NCBI RefSeq assembly: GCF_003018255.1 | Contig: NZ_CP027440.1 | DNA from: Escherichia coli | GTDB taxonomy: Bacteria > Pseudomonadota > Gammaproteobacteria > Enterobacterales > Enterobacteriaceae | Length of the DNA: 64,000 nt | Reading direction: 5' to 3' (one strand) | Shown here: in pieces, positions 1-54,749 of the stretch | Layout: each line of letters begins with the position of its first letter | Position numbering within the stretch: the stretch's first letter is position 1 | Made by a program: the position numbers and the translations under genes | The notes under the pieces: model-generated | What the model was told of the DNA's origin: nothing | The model's input: only the letters and a program-made list of their open reading frames with translations | Database searches by the model: none

Positions 1-720
1 AGCTCCGCCATGGCGGGCGCGTATGTGGGTCTTGGGATCATCCTGATTTTCACGCTCGGTAATTTGCTCGACCCGTCCGTACGTCCTCTGGTGATGGGCG
101 CGACCTTTGGTATCGCCTTAACGCTGGTCATTATTGCTGGTTCTGAACTGTTCACCGGACACACCATGTTCCTCACCTTTGGAGTGAAAGCGGGCACTAT
201 CAGCCACGGGCAAATGTGGGCAATCCTGCCGCAAACCTGGCTGGGTAACCTGGTTGGTTCCGTCTTTGTTGCCATGCTCTATAGCTGGGGCGGCGGTAGC
301 CTGCTGCCGGTAGATACCAGCATCGTTCACTCCGTCGCGCTGGCTAAAACCACTGCACCGGCAATGGTACTGTTCTTCAAAGGTGCATTGTGTAACTGGC
401 TGGTTTGCCTGGCTATCTGGATGGCGCTGCGCACTGAAGGGGCGGCGAAATTTATCGCTATCTGGTGGTGTCTGCTGGCATTTATCGCGTCCGGCTACGA
501 GCACTCCATCGCTAACATGACGCTGTTCGCCCTCTCCTGGTTTGGCAACCACAGCGAAGCCTACACGCTGGCGGGTATTGGTCATAACCTGCTGTGGGTG
601 ACGCTGGGTAATACTTTATCAGGTGCCGTATTCATGGGATTGGGTTATTGGTATGCTACGCCGAAAGCGAATCGTCCGGTTGCGGACAAATTTAATCAAA
701 CTGAAACAGCTGCCGGTTAA
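1..720 (+). CDS. nirC: Nitrite transporter NirC (FNT family), 3' portion; gene starts upstream of window
   Basis: In-frame ORF from base 1 to stop at 718-720; hydrophobic formate/nitrite transporter-like sequence; position immediately upstream of cysG. Confidence 0.9.
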   Translation, partial: SSAMAGAYVGLGIILIFTLGNLLDPSVRPLVMGATFGIALTLVIIAGSELFTGHTMFLTFGVKAGTISHGQMWAILPQTWLGNLVGSVFVAMLYSWGGGSLLPVDTSIVHSVALAKTTAPAMVLFFKGALCNWLVCLAIWMALRTEGAAKFIAIWWCLLAFIASGYEHSIANMTLFALSWFGNHSEAYTLAGIGHNLLWVTLGNTLSGAVFMGLGYWYATPKANRPVADKFNQTETAAG

Positions 721-738
721 TTACTAAGGGGTTTTTAC

Positions 739-2112
739 GTGGATCATTTGCCTATATTTTGCCAATTACGCGATCGCGACTGTCTGATTGTCGGCGGTGG
801 TGATGTCGCGGAACGCAAAGCAAGGTTACTGTTAGACGCAGGCGCTCGCTTAACGGTGAATGCATTAGCGTTTATTCCACAGTTCACCGCATGGGCAGAT
901 GCAGGCATGTTAACCCTCGTCGAAGGGCCATTTGATGAAAGCCTTCTCGACACCTGCTGGCTGGCGATTGCTGCGACGGATGATGACGCGCTTAACCAGC
1001 GCGTCAGTGAAGCCGCTGAAGCTCGTCGCATCTTCTGTAACGTGGTCGATGCGCCGAAAGCCGCCAGCTTTATTATGCCGTCAATTATTGACCGCTCACC
1101 GCTAATGGTCGCGGTCTCCTCTGGCGGCACCTCTCCGGTTCTGGCGCGCCTGTTGCGCGAAAAACTCGAATCACTGCTGCCGCTGCATCTGGGCCAGGTA
1201 GCGAAATACGCCGGGCAATTACGCGGGCGAGTGAAACAACAGTTCGCCACGATGGGTGAGCGTCGCCGTTTCTGGGAGAAATTGTTCGTTAACGACCGCC
1301 TGGCGCAGTCGCTGGCAAACAACGATCAGAAAGCCATTACTGAAACCACCGAACAGTTAATCAACGAACCGCTCGACCATCGCGGTGAAGTGGTGCTGGT
1401 TGGTGCAGGTCCGGGCGATGCCGGGCTGCTGACACTGAAAGGTCTGCAACAAATTCAGCAGGCAGATGTGGTGGTCTACGACCGTCTGGTTTCTGACGAT
1501 ATTATGAATCTGGTACGCCGCGATGCTGATCGCGTTTTCGTCGGCAAACGCGCGGGATACCACTGCGTACCGCAGGAAGAGATAAACCAGATCCTGCTAC
1601 GGGAAGCGCAAAAAGGCAAACGCGTGGTGCGGCTGAAAGGCGGCGATCCGTTTATTTTTGGCCGTGGTGGCGAAGAGCTGGAAACACTGTGCAACGCGGG
1701 TATTCCGTTCTCGGTGGTTCCGGGTATTACCGCAGCTTCTGGTTGCTCTGCCTATTCGGGTATTCCGCTCACGCATCGCGATTATGCCCAGAGCGTACGC
1801 TTAATTACCGGACACTTAAAAACCGGTGGCGAACTGGACTGGGAAAACCTGGCGGCAGAAAAACAGACGCTGGTGTTCTATATGGGGTTGAATCAGGCCG
1901 CGACTATTCAGCAAAAGCTGATTGAACACGGTATGCCTGGCGAAATGCCGGTGGCAATTGTCGAAAACGGAACGGCAGTCACGCAGCGCGTGATTGACGG
2001 TACACTCTCGCAGCTGGGCGAACTGGCGCAGCAAATGAACAGTCCATCGCTAATTATTATTGGTCGGGTTGTTGGCCTGCGCGATAAATTGAACTGGTTC
2101 TCCAACCATTAA
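739..2112 (+). CDS. cysG: Siroheme synthase (uroporphyrinogen-III methyltransferase / precorrin-2 dehydrogenase / ferrochelatase)
   Basis: 457 aa ORF with GTG start, N-terminus [31 protein letters not shown]-binding VGAGPGD motif. Confidence 0.95.
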
Positions 2113-2120
2113 TTTAACCC

Positions 2121-2150
2121 GGGCCAGAGAATTCTGGCCTTCTTAATGAC
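2121..2150 (+). terminator. Putative hairpin after cysG (ggccagagaattctggcc followed by T-rich tract)
   Basis: Inverted repeat read directly in sequence; T tract is interrupted. Confidence 0.35.
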
Positions 2151-2358
2151 TCTTTTTATATATTCAGCAAATAAAACATAACCCCTTAATAAATATTATC
2201 TGCTAATGGGTTATATTCACCGTTACAGCGACTTACAAAATTAAGCCATTCACTCACTGACGCTAATTAAATATTCCTGTATCGTTCTTAATGAGCAGTC
2301 CGCTTATATTCATATAAACAATAAATATTAACCAATATATAATACATAGGGAATGTAA

Positions 2359-2526
2359 ATGAACAAATTTATTGAAGTTACACTGGTAGGTGCGGTACTG
2401 GCTACGTTAACTGCATGTACTGGTCATATTGAAAACCGTGATAAAAACTGCTCTTACGACTACCTGCTGCACCCGGCAATTTCTATTTCTAAAATCATTG
2501 GCGGTTGCGGTCCTACTGCACAGTAA
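2359..2526 (+). CDS. yhfL: Small lipoprotein YhfL (55 aa)
   Basis: ATG at 2359, translation MNKFIEVTLVGAVLATLTACTGH... with lipobox LTAC; below 60 aa so absent from ORF track. Confidence 0.8.
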   Translation: MNKFIEVTLVGAVLATLTACTGHIENRDKNCSYDYLLHPAISISKIIGGCGPTAQ

Positions 2527-2568
2527 GTCTCTGACTGAAAGCGGCTAACACCGGTTTAATTGCCTGAC

Positions 2569-2600
2569 GCCCTCGGGGTTACCCGAGGGCGTATTTATTT
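2569..2600. terminator. Rho-independent terminator between convergent yhfL and yhfS
   Basis: Stem gccctcggg / cccgagggc with 4-nt loop, followed by gtatttattt. Confidence 0.6.
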
Positions 2601-2632
2601 CTGCATTCTTTTCGAAAACATCATGCACAAGA

Positions 2633-3718
2633 TTAAATACTGGCAATACTCTCACGCAAAATCCGCAGCACCGTCTCTTCACCGCTGCGATTTGGGTTAA
2701 TACGAATCGCGTAATGTTCGAGTTGCGGATTCGCCTGGCGAAACGTTCCGGAAAGTCGATAAAAAAGTGGCGGAATTTCATATTTCGACTCTGCACCAAC
2801 CGGGTAAGGCAAGGCACCGCGCTTTTGCGCCTCTTCCAGCACTCTGGCGGCAATCGGCTGATGAAACTCGACAATCAACACTTTCGACTGCGCATTGGCA
2901 ATCACCGCGCTTTTCACTTCCGCCACTGCGCCACCGTTAAGTAAAGCCAGCAACCGTTCAGATACCCCCGCCTGCACCGCGTGCATCACTGGCGCAAACA
3001 CCAGCCCACGCAAGACTTCCAACGCCTGAGCGCCCTGAATCTGGCTGCCGCCGGAGTAGAGCGTGGCGCGAATACGGTTAATAACATCAGCATCGCCTAC
3101 CACCGCGCCAACACCCTCTGGCCCAAATAGCTTGAAGCAGGAAAATGTCGAGACATTCGCCCCGCATTCACAGCCGATTCGCGCTACCTTCATCACCGCA
3201 TAGTTGTCATCGGTTAACGCTGGAACACCTGCCGCGCGCAACGTTGCTAGCACGTCTGCCAGCACATAGCGGTCCTGCGGCTGCTGGCGCGTATGCTGCA
3301 CCAGCGCCGCATCCGGTTGTTGCGCTTCAATGATTTGTTTAAGCGCCGACAGATCATTGAAATCAGCCGTAATGAGCGTTAGCCCCATCTGCTCAATAAT
3401 AACCCGTGTCGTCGGGTAAACAGGCGCGTCATGCACCAGAAGACGCTGCCCCGGTATGAGCAAAGCTGCCAGCGCCGCACGGATCGCGCCAGTACCCGCG
3501 CCCTGTACCAGCGCCGCGGCCTGTGAGTGAAACGCGTCAGCCAGCACCTGTTCCACACGCTGGGTAATGCGCGGTTGATTCAGTCCCGGCGTTAATCCCA
3601 AATCACCGCAGGTAAGAAATTCGCTACCAGGAAAATGGCGGCAAATCGTGTCCACCAGCGCAAACTGCTTTTGCTGCGCCTCAATAATCGTCAGGCTTTG
3701 CAGAGGAAACGTCTTCAT
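2633..3718 (-). CDS. yhfS: Putative PLP-dependent aminotransferase-like protein YhfS
   Basis: 361 aa ORF; size and order match the K-12 yhfS-yhfZ cluster. Confidence 0.85.
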   Translation of the reverse strand: MKTFPLQSLTIIEAQQKQFALVDTICRHFPGSEFLTCGDLGLTPGLNQPRITQRVEQVLADAFHSQAAALVQGAGTGAIRAALAALLIPGQRLLVHDAPVYPTTRVIIEQMGLTLITADFNDLSALKQIIEAQQPDAALVQHTRQQPQDRYVLADVLATLRAAGVPALTDDNYAVMKVARIGCECGANVSTFSCFKLFGPEGVGAVVGDADVINRIRATLYSGGSQIQGAQALEVLRGLVFAPVMHAVQAGVSERLLALLNGGAVAEVKSAVIANAQSKVLIVEFHQPIAARVLEEAQKRGALPYPVGAESKYEIPPLFYRLSGTFRQANPQLEHYAIRINPNRSGEETVLRILRESIASI

Positions 3719-3729
3719 AGGTGCCTTCC

Positions 3730-5034
3730 TTAAGCCGGAACGAACAGGCCAAGCCAGTAAAGAACATTCAGCAGAATACCGGTGATCATTACTGCCACGA
3801 CCGGTGCCGCCATTTTCTGTACCGGACGGCCCAGGGATTCGTTGAGGAAGTAAATGGCAACTGCGATAGAAAATCCGGTATAACCCGCCATTTTAATTGC
3901 TGCGAAAATCGAACCGACCAGCAACGCCACTTCCATCAGCATATTCATGGCGTTACGGATGTTATCCGACGCATTACGCACCGACGGGTAGCGCCCCAGC
4001 CATTTGCCGATCGAACGAAGCAGCAGGACTTCCGCCGAAATAACCACTGCGCCTAATACCGCTGCAACCATCGGATTCGGCGAGAGATAGCCCACCGCAT
4101 AAACAAAGGTAAAGCCCGCAACTGCATACACACCCGTTGCTAACGCGGTGGTGGCAATCAACGGCACAAACCCCAGTCCGCGCATGAATTCTGCCAGAGC
4201 CGCCTGATTAATCAGCGTTTGCGATTGTTCCGGCGTTACGCCTGCGGAATATGCTTTCTCCAGTGTGAAGATCGAAACTTCGCTACCAGCAAAAATCTTC
4301 ATGCTGGCAACGGCGGCAATCAGCGCCCCGACAATAGCGATATACGGTAAGTTTTTGATAATCCGTGACGTGCGTTCTTCAAACACCGACATACCGCTGG
4401 CATCGATATCATTTTCATCACGATGACGCAGGTCATGAGTTATTGCGATCCCCAGCAGCATCACCATGCCAATAAAGATTTCGATGGATTCAGGGTTAAG
4501 ATGTGGGAAATAGCGCACGACGACCACACGGGTCATCAGTACCACCACGGCGGCGATCAGACTTTGCTTCCAGCCAAACTGGTAGAAAATCGCCACCAAC
4601 GGGAACAGTGCAAAAGCTGAAACCACCGGCGAGCTTAATTCCCCCAGGCTACCTAATACATCCACCGGTAGCGCGGTCAGCAGCTGGTTTACCGGTAACA
4701 GGCAAGTAAGGATCAACACGCCCCAGATAGCGCCAAGACCAAACGCCATCAGGCTGTTTATCGCCAGTACGCCGAGGATATCGGTAGGAAGAAAGAGTAA
4801 CCATGCGTTGAGCAGTCCGGTTTTCAGGGTAAAAGAGATCCCCACCGAAGCCACAAAACCAATGCTCAGACCAAAAGCGATACTCCCCGCCTCGCGACGG
4901 TTCATATAGCCTTCAATCAGTTGCGGCAGGATCGGGCGGATACCGTCATGAAAAACGGCCGCCGAGCGATGCGCCAGAAGCGATGTCATACCCGTCAGGC
5001 ACGCCACCACGATAATCTGAATATACAGATCCAT
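3730..5034 (-). CDS. yhfT: Inner membrane protein YhfT
   Basis: 434 aa strongly hydrophobic multi-TM ORF; position in yhf cluster. Confidence 0.85.
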   Translation of the reverse strand: MDLYIQIIVVACLTGMTSLLAHRSAAVFHDGIRPILPQLIEGYMNRREAGSIAFGLSIGFVASVGISFTLKTGLLNAWLLFLPTDILGVLAINSLMAFGLGAIWGVLILTCLLPVNQLLTALPVDVLGSLGELSSPVVSAFALFPLVAIFYQFGWKQSLIAAVVVLMTRVVVVRYFPHLNPESIEIFIGMVMLLGIAITHDLRHRDENDIDASGMSVFEERTSRIIKNLPYIAIVGALIAAVASMKIFAGSEVSIFTLEKAYSAGVTPEQSQTLINQAALAEFMRGLGFVPLIATTALATGVYAVAGFTFVYAVGYLSPNPMVAAVLGAVVISAEVLLLRSIGKWLGRYPSVRNASDNIRNAMNMLMEVALLVGSIFAAIKMAGYTGFSIAVAIYFLNESLGRPVQKMAAPVVAVMITGILLNVLYWLGLFVPA

Positions 5035-5045
5035 AGTCGTGCCTT

Positions 5046-5399
5046 TTATTTCAGATGGTTAATCAGCATCGGAATCGCGTGTTCGACGTGCTCAACGGAA
5101 AGCCCAAACGCCACTTTCCCTTCGGCGATCATTTTGGCGATATGTTCGTCTTTCGCTTTAATGCCTGGTTTGGCAATGGTGCAACTTTTGTTATAGCCAA
5201 TCACCGCGATGGCAATCGACAATGCCGCGCCCGCACCGGTATTACACGCGCCGATGTAGTAATCCAGTTGCCCGGATTTGACTTTCATTGCCGCTTCCAT
5301 GTCGTTGTGAATGAAAACTTCAAAACAGCCAGGAGCCGTCGCTTCAATGGTTTTTTTAATCTGCTCACGCTGTAAGCCTGCAACACCAATCTTTTTCAT
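5046..5399 (-). CDS. yhfU: Small protein YhfU (DUF2620-like), 117 aa
   Basis: ORF track gives 130 aa; start trimmed to MKKIGVAGL (ATG 5397-5399) to fit the known 117 aa size and avoid overlap with php. Confidence 0.75.
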   Translation of the reverse strand: MKKIGVAGLQREQIKKTIEATAPGCFEVFIHNDMEAAMKVKSGQLDYYIGACNTGAGAALSIAIAVIGYNKSCTIAKPGIKAKDEHIAKMIAEGKVAFGLSVEHVEHAIPMLINHLK

Positions 5400-5409
5400 G
5401 AGTCTGTCC

Positions 5410-6288
5410 TTATTGGAAAAATTGAGAGGGAGTTTCACGTAACATCACATCCACATCGGCCTGACTGAATCCTGACTGGCGCAATTGCGGAATAAAGGTG
5501 GTCAATAAATAGTCATAGCCATAACCACCGTTGGCTTTTAAATGGGAGCGGCGCGTAATATCCATCGACAGCATGACGCGGTTAAGCAAACCTCGGTCAC
5601 GTAGCGCGTGGAGCATCGCAATGCGCTTTTCGTCCGGGTAGTAACTGTTCTTACCGATGGTGTCGAACTGCACATACGCGCCGAGATCGATCATCTTCAC
5701 AATGTTGTCGAGGTTGTCTTTCAGATCGCAGTGACCAACGGTGACGCGCGAAAGATCAACTCCGTGGGCTTGCAGTAGCGCCAGTTGTTCCAGCCCCATG
5801 GTGCTAAAAGAGGTATGCGTGGAGATCGGGCGTCCGGTCTGGTTATGCGCCAGCGCGGCGGCAATAAATACCTTCTCTTCCAGCGGCGTGATTTTTCCTT
5901 CGCTGGAGCCTATCTCCGCGATGATCCCGGCTTTCAGCTCCGTGCCATCGATACCCTGTTCAATTTCATCGACCATCTCTTGCGCCAGTTCCTGCACGCT
6001 GCGGGTCGCCACATGTTCCGGGAAAAACGCGTCCTGGTAATAACCGGTACAGGCCACCACGTTGATCCCGGTTTCGCGCATTACATCGAGCATAAATTGC
6101 GCATTGCGCCCCATGTAACGGTTGGTCATCTCAATCACATTACGCACGCCCTGGGCCATCAGGTCGTTCATCTCCTGGCAAATGAACGCATACTGATCAA
6201 GGCGGCAGTCCACGTTGTTTTTAAAGCCGGAGAGATCAATATGCAGATGCTCATGGGCGAGGGTGTAGCCCGTCGGATCAAAACTCAT
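5410..6288 (-). CDS. php: Phosphotriesterase homology protein
   Basis: 292 aa, N-terminal HEHLHID metal-binding motif typical of amidohydrolase/PTE family. Confidence 0.9.
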
Positions 6289-7511
6289 AGGGTGTCTCCT
6301 GCAAACCGGAGGGAGGAAAGAAAAGAGCGACCATTTTGTGGCGGTGGCGCGCGGAAAAATTCACATACGGTAGCCCCCACATCAGAAAGCGTGGTGAGCA
6401 CACCAAGCTGCGTAGCGACCATCCCTTGCTGATAAACCAGCACTGGCACCACTTCGCGGGTATGGTGGCTGTGACCAATGGTCGGATCGTTACCGTGATC
6501 CGCCATCACGACCAGGCAATCATCTGGCTGCATCGCCTCAATAAGCCGGGCAAGGTTACGGTCAACGACCTGCAAACGTTCCGCATAACGTGCGACGTCT
6601 TCTGCATGACCAGCGAGGTCGGTTTCCTGGATATTGGTACAAATAAACGCCGTCGGATGGGTGTTAAATTCGTTGAAGGTGATATCCATAATCCGCTGGC
6701 TATCCACCAGGTTTTGCCAGCTCACGCCATAAGGATTACTGGCAATATCCGCCACTTTCCCCACCAGCACGGTTGGTACGCCCACTTCATACAGTTTTTG
6801 TGGCACCTGCACTTTTTCATCGACGCCGTAGCCCATATGCACGACCTGGAAGCCGTTGTCATAAGCGCCAGAACGCGGCGCATTGATGCCAATAAAGCGC
6901 CCTTCTTTGCTTTCTGCGGCATCGAGGATGCGCTGGCTGTCGGTTAACAGGCCACCAAATGTAATGACCCGACCGACCTGTACCTGCTCACGCACGATAC
7001 GACCAATTTTGATTGCGTCGTCAAAAGAGATCACAGAGAGATTGGCGGTGATGTTATAGACCTGACCTAAATCCGCCTCGAGATTATCGCCAATCGCAAC
7101 CGCCTGATTGACCCACAGAAATTGCAGATCATCGCCACGGCGCTCCACCTGCCAGTCAGCGTTAAGTAATGCTTGCTCAACACGGTCAATCACATCGCGA
7201 AAGGGCATCCGTAGCGGCGGTAACGGGCGCGTGCCTAAAATTTCCTGATGCCCCATAAAGGTATCGCCACCTTCATGTTGCAGCTCTGCCACGCCCCAGG
7301 TTGCGGAGTCTGACGGCTGCATATCTCCAGGCGCATAACCTAATGCGTTGATTAGCCCCATTTTCTCCAGCATTGGTAGCTGCAAATGCGGCAACTGGCT
7401 CAGGATGTGACCACAGGTATTTGCCCCGGCATCCTGCGGACGCACCAACGTGACATCTTTCATTGCCCCTACGCCAAAGCTATCAATCACTAACACCACA
7501 AATCGCGCCAT
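6285..7511 (-). CDS. yhfW: Phosphopentomutase-like metalloenzyme YhfW
   Basis: 408 aa ORF, 4-nt overlap with php start; position in yhf cluster. Confidence 0.85.
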
Positions 7512-8674
7512 TACGCCCCCAGAGAGTTTCCAAGACTGTCATAACGACCGACGATTTCTGGTTCGCCACGGTGAATACCGGACAGCAACACCACATCGCT
7601 ACGGGTGACAAAAATCTGCGTGCGAAAACAGAGCACTACTGCACTGCTTACCGGAAACTCGCCTGCCAGCGGCAGGGTGTAGTCGATACTGCTGTCATCC
7701 ACAGTTTTGAGATTGGTTTCAGTAATCTTTTGATTTTCTGGCGTAAACACCAGCGCATGTTGCGCGTGACCACGACGGTAGTAACCGCCGCCGTAGCAGT
7801 AGCTGTCGCCACGAAAATGATGGGAGATTTCACTTAACCAGAGCATCGCGATACGTTCAGGCTGATCGCCCTGCTGGTTTGCCGGAATCGTCCCCGTCAG
7901 CGCATGACCGGGTTCGGCATGAGTCACACCGTATTCCGCCAGCAATGGCAGCGAAGTGCAGCTGGTCGCAGAAGGTGCGTTCAGTTGCTCAATCGCAATA
8001 CCAGATTTCGCCAGTTGATCCCGTGCCTGTATCAGCGTGTGAAGATTCGGTGTCGGCAAAACTTTCCCGGCAGCCTCATCCCAAAGCAGGCAAGGGAAAT
8101 GGGTTAGTCCGGCTAAATGCAGCCCCGGCAGTTTCTTAATATCAGCAACCACCTCGTGCAGCGAATGCTGTACAAAACCGCTCTCCTGCCCCGGATAAAG
8201 AAAATCATCGTCGCTATAAACTTTGAGCAGCACAGACTGCACACGTCCGGCCTTCACCGCTGCTGCAGAAACTTCCCGCGCTTTATCGAGAGTAAACACG
8301 GTGATGACGTCAGTTCCCTGTGCAACGGCGTCAGAAACCTGGTGACAAGGGATTTGCACCAGATGCCCCTGATGCGCCAACGGCAGACCGGCGCGGCGCA
8401 TGACCCGCGCCTCTTTGTAATCCACCGCCACAATGCCGCTGTAGCCCAGTGCCAGAAGTTTTTCCGCCAGCCACGGATTACGGCCAAACTGCTTGGTCAT
8501 CAGATACAGTTCAATGCCGTAAAGTCGCGCCGTCTCAATCAGCCGCTTACCGTTTTCCAGTATCTGATCCACATCGATCACCCAGCTGTCCGGGGCGATC
8601 TTGCCCTGCTGCCACAAACTTAGTGCGGCGGAAATCAGCGCCGGGTTCTGGCGTTTCAATGCTTCTACAAACAT
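7511..8674 (-). CDS. yhfX: Alanine racemase-like (PLP barrel) protein YhfX
   Basis: 387 aa ORF, 1-nt overlap with yhfW; position in yhf cluster. Confidence 0.85.
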
Positions 8675-28399: not shown

Positions 28400-28423
28400 G
28401 CCTGATGCGCTTATCAGACCTAC
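28400..28423. repeat. REP-like element
   Basis: gcctgatgcgcttatcagacctac. Confidence 0.5.
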
Positions 28424-28489
28424 GGATTCAATGCAATTTATCGCAGGTAAGATAATGTGCCGAATCCAATAAAAATCAGATATGCGCTG

Positions 28490-30214
28490 TCATTCATTCA
28501 GATTCAAATCCAGTCTTTCGCCATCCACCGTAAGATCGCGCCACACTTTAGGCTTCGTCCCCAGTTTTCCATCCTCCGCAGCCATGAGTAATTTTTCTTT
28601 CGTTATTACAGCCGGGAGTGAATTCATCGTAATCTCTTTCCATTCTTTCCCAGCAGGATCAATACCATAGATAATGTATCTTTCATCATTAAAGGCAAAC
28701 AGGATCCGCTCTGCCCTGCCATCACTATTCAGATCTTGCTCTACCAGCACGCAGGCATCTTTTTCAATGCATATCATTGCGTTATAGCGATTTTTCATCA
28801 CTGCCGACCAGAATATCGTATCCGGTTTTCCAGAACCTGAGGCAATAAATACATTATCTGCTAATGCTTTTTCCGATATCTGCTGCTGAAGACGTTGTAC
28901 TCCATCAAATGCCATCAGCAGACCCCGCCTGCGTTTCGGGTCTTTCATATACTCGGCATCGCTTTTCAGCGACTCAAGCGCCGCACGTCCATAGCGACCG
29001 CTCTGTTCGAGCATATAGAGACTTACCTGGTCTGGCGTGTTTTTGCCGCTCTGATAACGCGCCATATGACTGTTCACGCTAATGCGCATACTGTCCAGCA
29101 CCGGAGAATTAAGAAGCACCAGTATTACCAACACCAATAACGAAACCGCAAGGTTCACTTTGCCCTGAAGAACAAGGGGGTTTTGCCCTTTACGCCAGAC
29201 GATACTGACAAAATACCCCAGCGACCATACCAGTAACACCAGCACCGCCAGCGCGCCCTGCAAGCGGTCGACAGTCCAGCCGTACTGAGCGACCCGCAGC
29301 CATAACGCCCAGGCGGCGACGAACACATACAGCGGAGCAACCAGCAAAGCGGTTTTAATCAGGCAACGCAACGGCCCCGTCCAGGGAAGAGACGCTTTTT
29401 GCGGATCGCGGACAATAGCCATTAAGATCAATTGCAAAAAGGCCAGCGTTAACAGCAACCCAGCGGCGGAGATGTGGCGAGAAATCGCGCTCAGGCCCGT
29501 AAACGGCAGGGTGATAATAAACATCAGGGTTAGCAATGATACTAACGGCAGCAACCCCGTGGCGATTAACGTGAACAACTTTTGAATAGAGTCGATTAAA
29601 CGTGACTGTGTACGCGCGAGGATCACCGCCAGTGCGGTAACCAGACCTAACGTGAGATAAATAAACCAGTCGGTTGCAAAAAAGAGCGTTTTGAAAAACG
29701 TGATGCCAACAAGTTTAAACAACTCTCCCCACAGTAAAAGTACCAGCCACGTCAGGCCATTGGCGAGAAAAATCACCAGTAATATAAGTACGTTATGCCA
29801 TACTGACTGGTAAAAATAGCGATAGCGGCTACTGTCATTGCGGATGCGAAGGCTTTGTTGTATCCACGGTAGCAACAACATTGCCATCAGCAGCAGATAG
29901 CAACCAAAATCCCAAAGCGCCTTTTCTGCTCTCCAGGGGTTCATGCCATCAATTTGCCACTTTAGCCAACCGCTCATCCCTAGCGTGGCAATAAACACCA
30001 GCGCCAGCCATCCCCAAAGGCGCTTCTGTTTAAAGGAGATCACGGAGAAGAGTAAAACGGATGAAAACGCGACGGTCGCAGGCACGCCATAAACAATCCA
30101 ACTGTGATTTTTTCCGGCAAGCCAGGCGATCAGCAGGTAGCAAACCAGACCCTGAAGTAATCCGGTAGCAATCATCCCCCAGCGTGTTGCCGGTGAAAGT
30201 TCAACGTTATCCAT
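28490..30214 (-). CDS. yhgE: Inner membrane protein YhgE
   Basis: 574 aa; many TM segments in N-terminal two thirds, soluble C-terminal domain. Confidence 0.85.
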
Positions 30215-32215: not shown

Positions 32216-32260
32216 TGATTTGAAGCTGGAGAATATCTATCCAGTATCTTATAGAAAGCA

Positions 32261-40923: not shown

Positions 40924-41805
40924 ATGAGCAAAAAGCAGAGTTCCACCCCACACGATGCGCTGTTCAAACTCTTTTTACGCCAACCGGAGACGGCACGCGA
41001 TTTTCTTGCGTTTCATTTACCGGCACCCATTCACGCGCTCTGTGATATGAAAACCCTCAAGCTGGAGTCGAGCAGCTTTATTGATGACGATCTGCGTGAA
41101 AGCTATTCCGACGTGCTGTGGTCGGTGAAAACGGAACAAGGACCAGGATACATCTATTGTCTGATTGAACATCAAAGCACCTCAAACAAACTGATCGCAT
41201 TTCGCATGATGCGTTACGCTATTGCCGCAATGCAAAATCACCTTGATGCCGGATACAAAACGTTGCCGATGGTGGTGCCATTGTTGTTTTACCACGGTAT
41301 TGAAAGCCCCTATCCCTATTCGCTGTGTTGGCTGGATTGTTTCGCCGATCCCAACCTGGCAAGGCAGCTCTATGCCTCTGCATTTCCGCTGATTGATGTC
41401 ACCGTCATGCCTGATGATGAAATCATGCAGCACCGACGTATGGCGCTGCTGGAGTTAATTCAAAAACATATTCGTCAACGCGATCTAATGGGGCTGGTAG
41501 AGCAAATGGCCTGCTTATTAAGTAGTGGATACGCTAATGACAGACAAATCAAAGGGCTGTTTAATTACATCTTGCAAACCGGCGATGCGGTACGTTTTAA
41601 CGATTTTATCGACGGCGTTGCCGAACATTCACCGAAACACAAGGAGAGCTTAATGACTATTGCGGAAAGATTGCGGCAAGAGGGGTTTCAGAAAGGTATA
41701 CGAGCTATCGCCAAAACCATGCTGGATGCCGGAGTCCCTCTTGAGGACGTTCTGCGATTTACCAGCCTGACGGTTGAAGACCTTGCTGAAATAAATCATC
41801 AATAA
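40924..41805 (+). CDS. rpnA: Recombination-promoting nuclease RpnA / YhgA (transposase_31, PD-(D/E)XK-like)
   Basis: 293 aa; N-terminus [17 protein letters not shown]; position between feoC and bioH. Confidence 0.85.
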
Positions 41806-41822
41806 CGTAAAGGATGGTTTTA

Positions 41823-41996
41823 ATGACAGATGCAGAAAGAGAATATCTTATTAGTTACCTGATTGGTTATTTATTGGGTCGACGCCTGGAAGCCCTGGAT
41901 ATCGCCAAAAGAATGCTGTAATCCGGAGTCCCTCTTGCAGACATCATGCGCTTTACCGGGGTGTCAGAAGAAGAGTTGGCTGCGGCGAGCCAGTAA
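41823..41996 (+). pseudogene. Degenerate duplicate of an rpn-family 3' end (interrupted by in-frame stop and frameshift)
   Basis: Translation IAKRML*/SGVPLADIMRFTGVSEEELAAASQ parallels the RpnA C-terminus [35 protein letters not shown] similarity visible by eye. Confidence 0.45.
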
Positions 41997-42024
41997 AGTT
42001 CTGTCTCGCCATTTCAAAAGCCAC

Positions 42025-50975: not shown

Positions 50976-53687
<2,712 letters not shown>

Positions 53688-53692
53688 GTTTA

Positions 53693-53716
53693 GCCGGATA
53701 ATACGTCGGATCCGGC
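53693..53716. terminator. Hairpin between malT and rtcA (convergent)
   Basis: gccggataatacgtcggatccggc. Confidence 0.55.
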
Positions 53717-53729
53717 TTACATCTTTATA

Positions 53730-54749
<1,020 letters not shown>

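Follow-up and report, generated by a model that had tools for sequence, protein, structure and literature searches.

The use of fructoselysine and psicoselysine, Amadori compounds from heated food, is a trait already tied to phylogroup and gut niche in Escherichia coli. Strains of phylogroup B2 have been described as lacking the fructoselysine transporter and the frl operon, with a predicted growth of 0-3% in B2 versus 69-91% in other groups (Fang et al. 2018, PMC5996543), and a 2025-26 study presents the loss of fructoselysine/psicoselysine catabolism as a hallmark of B2 (10.1101/2025.09.14.675865). The operon is also missing from a B1 gut isolate (PMC12021133), and frl is among the clusters that are variably present in B1 and were gained convergently in B1 EHEC strains (Didelot et al. 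2012). A statement in a pangenome paper that the fructoselysine degradation genes are exclusive to B2/D-type 'lower phylons' was set aside, being contradicted by the genome counts given below and by the other papers. A paper on frl regulation (10.1101/2020.01.13.904318) contains nothing on distribution or neighbouring genes.

In K-12 MG1655 the annotated gene order is yhfL-frlA-frlB-frlC-frlD-frlR-yhfS, as given in a first reading of our DNA made from its letters (the sequence-only reading). Here we analysed the corresponding locus in a stretch of 64,000 nucleotides of E. coli DNA (the window; contig NZ_CP027440.1 of assembly GCF_003018255.1), in which the frl genes are absent between yhfL and yhfS. 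On the structure of the site, the population frequencies of its states, the outgroup state and the identical insertion junctions of three diverged frl haplotypes, the window very probably carries the ancestral, never-interrupted yhfL-yhfS allele, frlABCDR having inserted once in an early E. coli lineage. The empty site itself is a real, common and previously described strain polymorphism and reveals no new element or mechanism. The sequence-only reading had likewise announced a known difference and no novel element, which the reports of frl absence cited above bear out (PMC5996543, 10.1101/2025.09.14.675865, PMC12021133, Didelot et al. 2012). What is added here is polarity, i.e. an old single insertion in other lineages and no loss in this allele, which bears on how gain and loss of the Frl pathway are scored in pangenome studies.

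The yhfL-yhfS locus of the window

The relevant features are as follows.

Start of the window, before cysG and within the first 6.3 kb: nirC (partial)
739..2112, + strand: cysG (siroheme synthase), upstream conserved flank; 457-aa ORF, 99.6% identity to K-12 CysG, same name in matching genomes
2359..2526, + strand: yhfL, small lipoprotein-like gene of the DUF4223 family, on the left of the site; 55-aa ORF, Pfam DUF4223 E 4.8e-37
2527..2632, no strand: yhfL-yhfS spacer of 106 bp, unoccupied frl insertion site of ancestral type; collinear with the spacers of other Escherichia
2567..2592, + strand: predicted intrinsic terminator hairpin of yhfL, 11-bp stem, GTTA loop; T-tract at 2593-2602
2603..2631, no strand: 29-nt segment GCATTCTTTTCGAAAACATCATGCACAAG, in whose place K-12 has the frlABCDR cassette (5,242 bp), as delimited by the BLAST breakpoints against MG1655
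2609-2618: palindrome TTTTCGAAAA, inside the 29-nt segment
2633..3718, - strand: yhfS, encoding a PLP-dependent aminotransferase-fold enzyme, right neighbour of the site and first gene of the yhfS-yhfZ cluster; 361-aa ORF

After yhfS along the window come yhfT, yhfU and php, on the strand opposite to yhfL and within the first 6.3 kb, a region whose encoded proteins share 96-100% identity with those of K-12. YhfL and YhfS each show ~96% identity to the K-12 proteins (95.8% for YhfS, which matches the Pfam families YhfS-like_C and Aminotran_1_2), and the two genes carry identical RefSeq names in matching genomes. They are adjacent and convergent. Their stop codons, at 2524-2526 for yhfL and 2633-2635 for yhfS, put the spacer at exactly 106 bp (2527-2632), where the sequence-only reading had given about 106 bp. 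None of the five K-12 Frl proteins (FrlA, FrlB, FrlC, FrlD and FrlR) gave a tblastn match in the 64-kb window, so that the absence of the operon claimed from the sequence holds. The spacer is identical to those of E. coli JNE23-011 and WP4-S18-ESBL-07; a literature search returned no match for the names of these closest strains or of JNE112863, another of them.

YhfL differs from its K-12 counterpart by two residue changes, K6E and A8T (window positions 2374 and 2380; yhfL codons 6 and 8), which fall in the signal-peptide region and both lie within a patch, 1974-2445, that is considered below. The protein WP_001031834.1 is the YhfL of every annotated E. coli locus inspected.

A single perfect 11-bp inverted repeat was found in the spacer, at 2567-2577 and 2582-2592, with a 4-nt GTTA loop and followed on the + strand by ATTTATTTCT. 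Nine of the 11 bp of the stem are GC pairs, and the stem is continued by a U-tract (ATTTATTTCT), as in an intrinsic terminator of yhfL; a terminator scan accordingly returned the site on the + strand only. The spacer RNA folds with -36.5 kcal/mol (z = -3.3). Over nine Escherichia sequences the stem is paired in 97% of cells, with compensatory GC to AU/UA changes at one stem pair, and in K-12 the hairpin remains on the yhfL side, upstream of the frl cassette. The sequence-only reading had seen one hairpin terminator shared by the two genes. The single hairpin and its role for yhfL stand; the sharing with yhfS finds no support, since the hairpin is followed on the - strand by CAGGCAATTAAACC, with no T-run, and the scan gave no - strand site. 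By sequence criteria the hairpin is a conserved, one-directional yhfL terminator. Repeat searches of the junction region of the window returned this hairpin alone. Rfam gave no match for the whole window at gathering thresholds or for 2200-2900 at E <= 1, which indicates that the spacer contains no known RNA family.

Comparison with K-12 and with other Escherichia species

Alignment to MG1655, by which the sequence-only reading proposed to check its claim, showed homology over window positions 1-2602 (97.3% identity), ending just after the terminator T-tract, and again over 2632-6389 (95.8% identity), beginning at the yhfS stop codon. Between these breakpoints K-12 has 5,242 bp and the window 29 nt (GCATTCTTTTCGAAAACATCATGCACAAG). 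The two loci have the flanking genes and the yhfL terminator in common; they differ by a divergence of 2.7% in the left flank and 4.2% in the right flank, and by the cassette that K-12 has in place of the 29 nt. Besides frlABCDR, the K-12 cassette comprises the frlA promoter region, a REP element and a boxC-like repeat, and its G+C content of 53.8% equals that of the flanks. Its annotation lists frlABCDR only, with no IS, transposase, integrase or tRNA. Neither direct nor inverted repeats stand at the cassette ends, no repeat family links one boundary with the other, and the junction sequences show no target duplication, so that the cassette does not qualify as a mobile element. A transposon-like or precise-excision model was dropped, as no repeats pair the cassette boundaries.

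The left junction is common to K-12, O157:H7 and 042 (...GTATTTGTTTCT followed by A[TC][GA]TCCTTCTTGC...), and the right junction to K-12 and 042 (...CTATCCAGC followed by ATTAAATA). The cassettes of O157:H7 and 042 diverge from that of K-12 by 2.5% and 3.1%, respectively, which is about the genome-wide distance between phylogroups. Common junctions together with divergence at the level of phylogroups point to an insertion that is old and single, and the cassette data fit one old insertion that was afterwards inherited mostly vertically.

The boxC-like repeat (CCCTCACCCTAACCCTCTCCCC...GGGGCGAGGGG) lies 3' of frlR in K-12 (locus L001, 14445-14495) and in O157:H7. Strain 042 (locus L094, 36051-36165) is without it between frlR and the next gene, and the repeat hence came later, inside the 3' end of the cassette.

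The state of the site outside E. coli was read from yhfS loci with flanks of 10 kb, recovered from a single genome of each species, in which the K-12 proteins were located; no locus of E. fergusonii was recovered. yhfS stands directly beside yhfL in E. albertii, E. whittamii, Escherichia sp. MOD1-EC7003 and SCPM-O-B-8794, the last with 91.5% identity to the window and hence outside E. coli proper. It stands beside yhfL or cysG in several Citrobacter, an Enterobacter and Buttiauxella. No frl genes were found at the yhfS locus in any of the recovered Escherichia, Citrobacter, Enterobacter and Buttiauxella outgroups. The whole spacer of the window, including the 29-mer, aligns base for base with those of the four non-coli Escherichia, and the 29-nt segment is conserved in the other Escherichia species and in all sampled empty-site E. 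coli. The other Escherichia (E. albertii, E. whittamii and the cryptic clades) thus have the same arrangement, collinear spacer, hairpin and 29-mer, and differ by 8-11% nucleotide divergence overall. The gene order of the outgroups and the collinearity of the spacer make the empty site the ancestral state and frl the insertion. On these alignments, 'absent' is to be read as never inserted in this allele, rather than as 'deleted'. The DNA identity of the GTDB 'E. coli E69' (~91%, with proteins at 96-100%) was left out, its alignments being gap-rich.

A course of events that accounts for these data would be the following. The 5.2-kb frlABCDR cassette would have entered once, in an early E. coli lineage, at an exact point just downstream of the yhfL terminator, replacing about 29 nt of the spacer. 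The lineages of K-12 (phylogroup A), 042 (D) and O157:H7 (E) would have kept it, those of CFT073 (B2), IAI39 (F) and the window being without it, and both states would later have been redistributed by homologous recombination in the flanks.

Distribution of the two states and recombination around the site

A 601-bp probe over the junction of the window was searched in 5,426 complete E. coli genomes, a genome being counted as empty when at least 80% of the probe was covered in one piece. The empty junction was found in 2,105 of them (39%) and the K-12 yhfL-frlA junction in 3,293 (61%), which makes the presence/absence polymorphism named by the sequence-only reading a common one; in about 0.5% of the genomes the locus is in some other state. 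The K-12 cassette is covered to at least 80% in 3,297/5,426 genomes. The closeness of this number to the 3,293 genomes with the junction indicates that frl is essentially confined to the yhfL-yhfS site, and from these counts we infer that frl is absent from the remainder of the window strain's genome as well. The strain is probably unable to use fructoselysine or psicoselysine via the Frl pathway, a prediction from gene content and from the model-based and experimental reports. The main use of the empty site is as a strain marker, of a strain that is not K-12 and probably makes no use of these compounds.

On direct inspection the site was empty in CFT073 (B2), IAI39 (F), JNE23-011, WP4-S18-ESBL-07, E22, ATCC BAA-2469 and Ec1119, and occupied in K-12 (A), 042 (D) and O157:H7 (E). 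The frl-negative B2 type, represented by CFT073, resembles the window in its convergent yhfL and yhfS ~106-107 bp apart, the lack of frl and the same hairpin layout; it differs in having only 91-92% identity to the window across the junction segment. The empty state extends beyond B2, to IAI39 and to K-12-like backgrounds such as that of Ec1119. O157:H7 agrees with K-12 on the yhfL side and at the left junction of the insertion. In O157:H7 strain 2159 (locus L089, 9520-14530) frl is kept, with frlD as a pseudogene (internal stop), but the whole yhfS-yhfZ cluster is gone and frlR abuts trpS, which constitutes a third structural state. A yhfS-php probe had no match in about 350 of the 5,426 genomes.

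The non-K-12 background proposed from the sequence is borne out by a divergence of 2.8% (2.78%) from MG1655 over 42 kb. The window diverges by 2.65% from CFT073, 2.3% (2.33%) from IAI39 and 2.7% from 042, and lies about equally far, at 2.3-3.0%, from the references of phylogroups A, B2, D and F. It does not carry a close B2 haplotype, CFT073 (2.65% over ~41 kb) being no nearer than K-12 or IAI39; the window does not reach the Clermont marker genes, and this comparison concerns the local haplotype only.

JNE23-011 is nearly clonal with the window, with a single difference over 4523-31944. The other differences between the two are clustered in dense patches at 72-543, 1974-2445 and 2840-4522, and over 2446-2839, which includes the junction, they are identical. 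These patches, two of which stand on either side of the junction, look like recombination imports. They left the empty state unchanged, as JNE23-011 is empty too. Window 2840-4530 has at most 94.7% identity to every haplotype sampled.

Occupancy and flanks are dissociated in Ec1119 (locus L088, 2727-3880), which is empty, with the ancestral-type 29-mer, and whose left flank equals that of K-12 over 574 bp and its right flank over 550 bp. An empty site within K-12-type flanks indicates that recombination has uncoupled occupancy from the flank haplotype. With states exchanged between backgrounds in this way, the state of a strain need not mirror its clonal ancestry. The Ec1119 allele is hard to explain otherwise than by crossovers very near the cassette ends or by a long-segregating polymorphism.

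Pairwise comparison of nine E. coli haplotypes gave a diversity maximum of 6-7% from ~2100 to 3600 (yhfL, spacer and yhfS), against 1-3% on either side, the absolute values being biased upward because the haplotypes were chosen to span the identity range. Mean dS is 0.24 in yhfS versus 0.085 in cysG, with a dN/dS of 0.08 that denotes purifying selection, and the yhfS-php allele of the window (2633-6300) has a best match of 98.3% in the 5,426 complete genomes. Selection might have kept an old presence/absence polymorphism in the species, with the junction at its core, or the junction might be a local hotspot for the import of diverged DNA; we put this forward tentatively, as the less likely case. 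If true, balancing selection on fructoselysine use or on yhfS-yhfZ would provide a small, testable case of a niche-linked polymorphism in E. coli.

Recombination at this place also raises the alternative that the lineage of the window once carried frl and lost it when DNA from an empty-site donor replaced the region by homologous recombination, the allele being ancestral in type and its absence secondary. The patches at 1974-2445 and 2840-4522, which immediately flank the junction, are what such an event could leave behind; the empty spacer of Ec1119 within K-12-type flanks, the diversity peak around the junction and the convergent gain of frl in B1 EHEC (Didelot et al. 2012) would go along with it. 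However, JNE23-011 has an empty site too and does not differ from the window over 2446-2839, so that the patches did not change occupancy, and nothing sets the lineage of the window inside an frl-positive clade. We regard this replacement as unlikely.

A simple deletion of the operon from this allele, by illegitimate recombination or excision, is permitted by the word 'absent', and catabolic operons are commonly lost in E. coli. The 106-bp spacer, however, has neither a scar nor an frl remnant, and the K-12 cassette lacks flanking repeats through which it could be excised precisely. Moreover, the 29-nt segment is missing in K-12 and present in other Escherichia; deletion of the K-12 cassette could not recreate it, and the spacer is hence not a deletion product. 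This makes a deletion highly improbable. An assembly artefact, i.e. a collapsed or mis-joined contig, can practically be dismissed, the same junction recurring in 2,105 complete genomes, CFT073 and IAI39 among them, and in identical sequence in JNE23-011. The never-interrupted ancestral allele is thus the reading that we retain.

Other differences along the window

Two further segments of the window differ in gene content between strains. In the pckA-envZ gap (window positions 32216-32260), JNE23-011, CFT073 and IAI39 have ~790 bp with a pair resembling a RelE/ParE toxin and a NadS antitoxin, in place of which the window has 43 nt. This RelE/ParE-NadS-like pair is also missing from K-12, and the toxin gene of CFT073 has an internal stop.

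Downstream of glpD, the segment 61417-64000 has no counterpart in MG1655. Three ORFs of 201, 258 and 236 aa lie there on one strand, none of them with a Pfam match, followed by a 68-aa ORF (63741-63947) whose match to the Pfam family Fimbrial is confined to the C-terminal part of that family. The segment is found with 100% identity in JNE23-011, is covered to at least 80% in 2,268/5,426 genomes, and appears to be a common accessory segment with no assigned function.

Finally, four 500-bp bins (8001-8500, 28501-29000, 41501-42000 and 53501-54000) show 10-16% mismatch to K-12, against a background of ~2-3%, and small indels relative to K-12 are present near 28412-28482, 41788-41890 and 45847.
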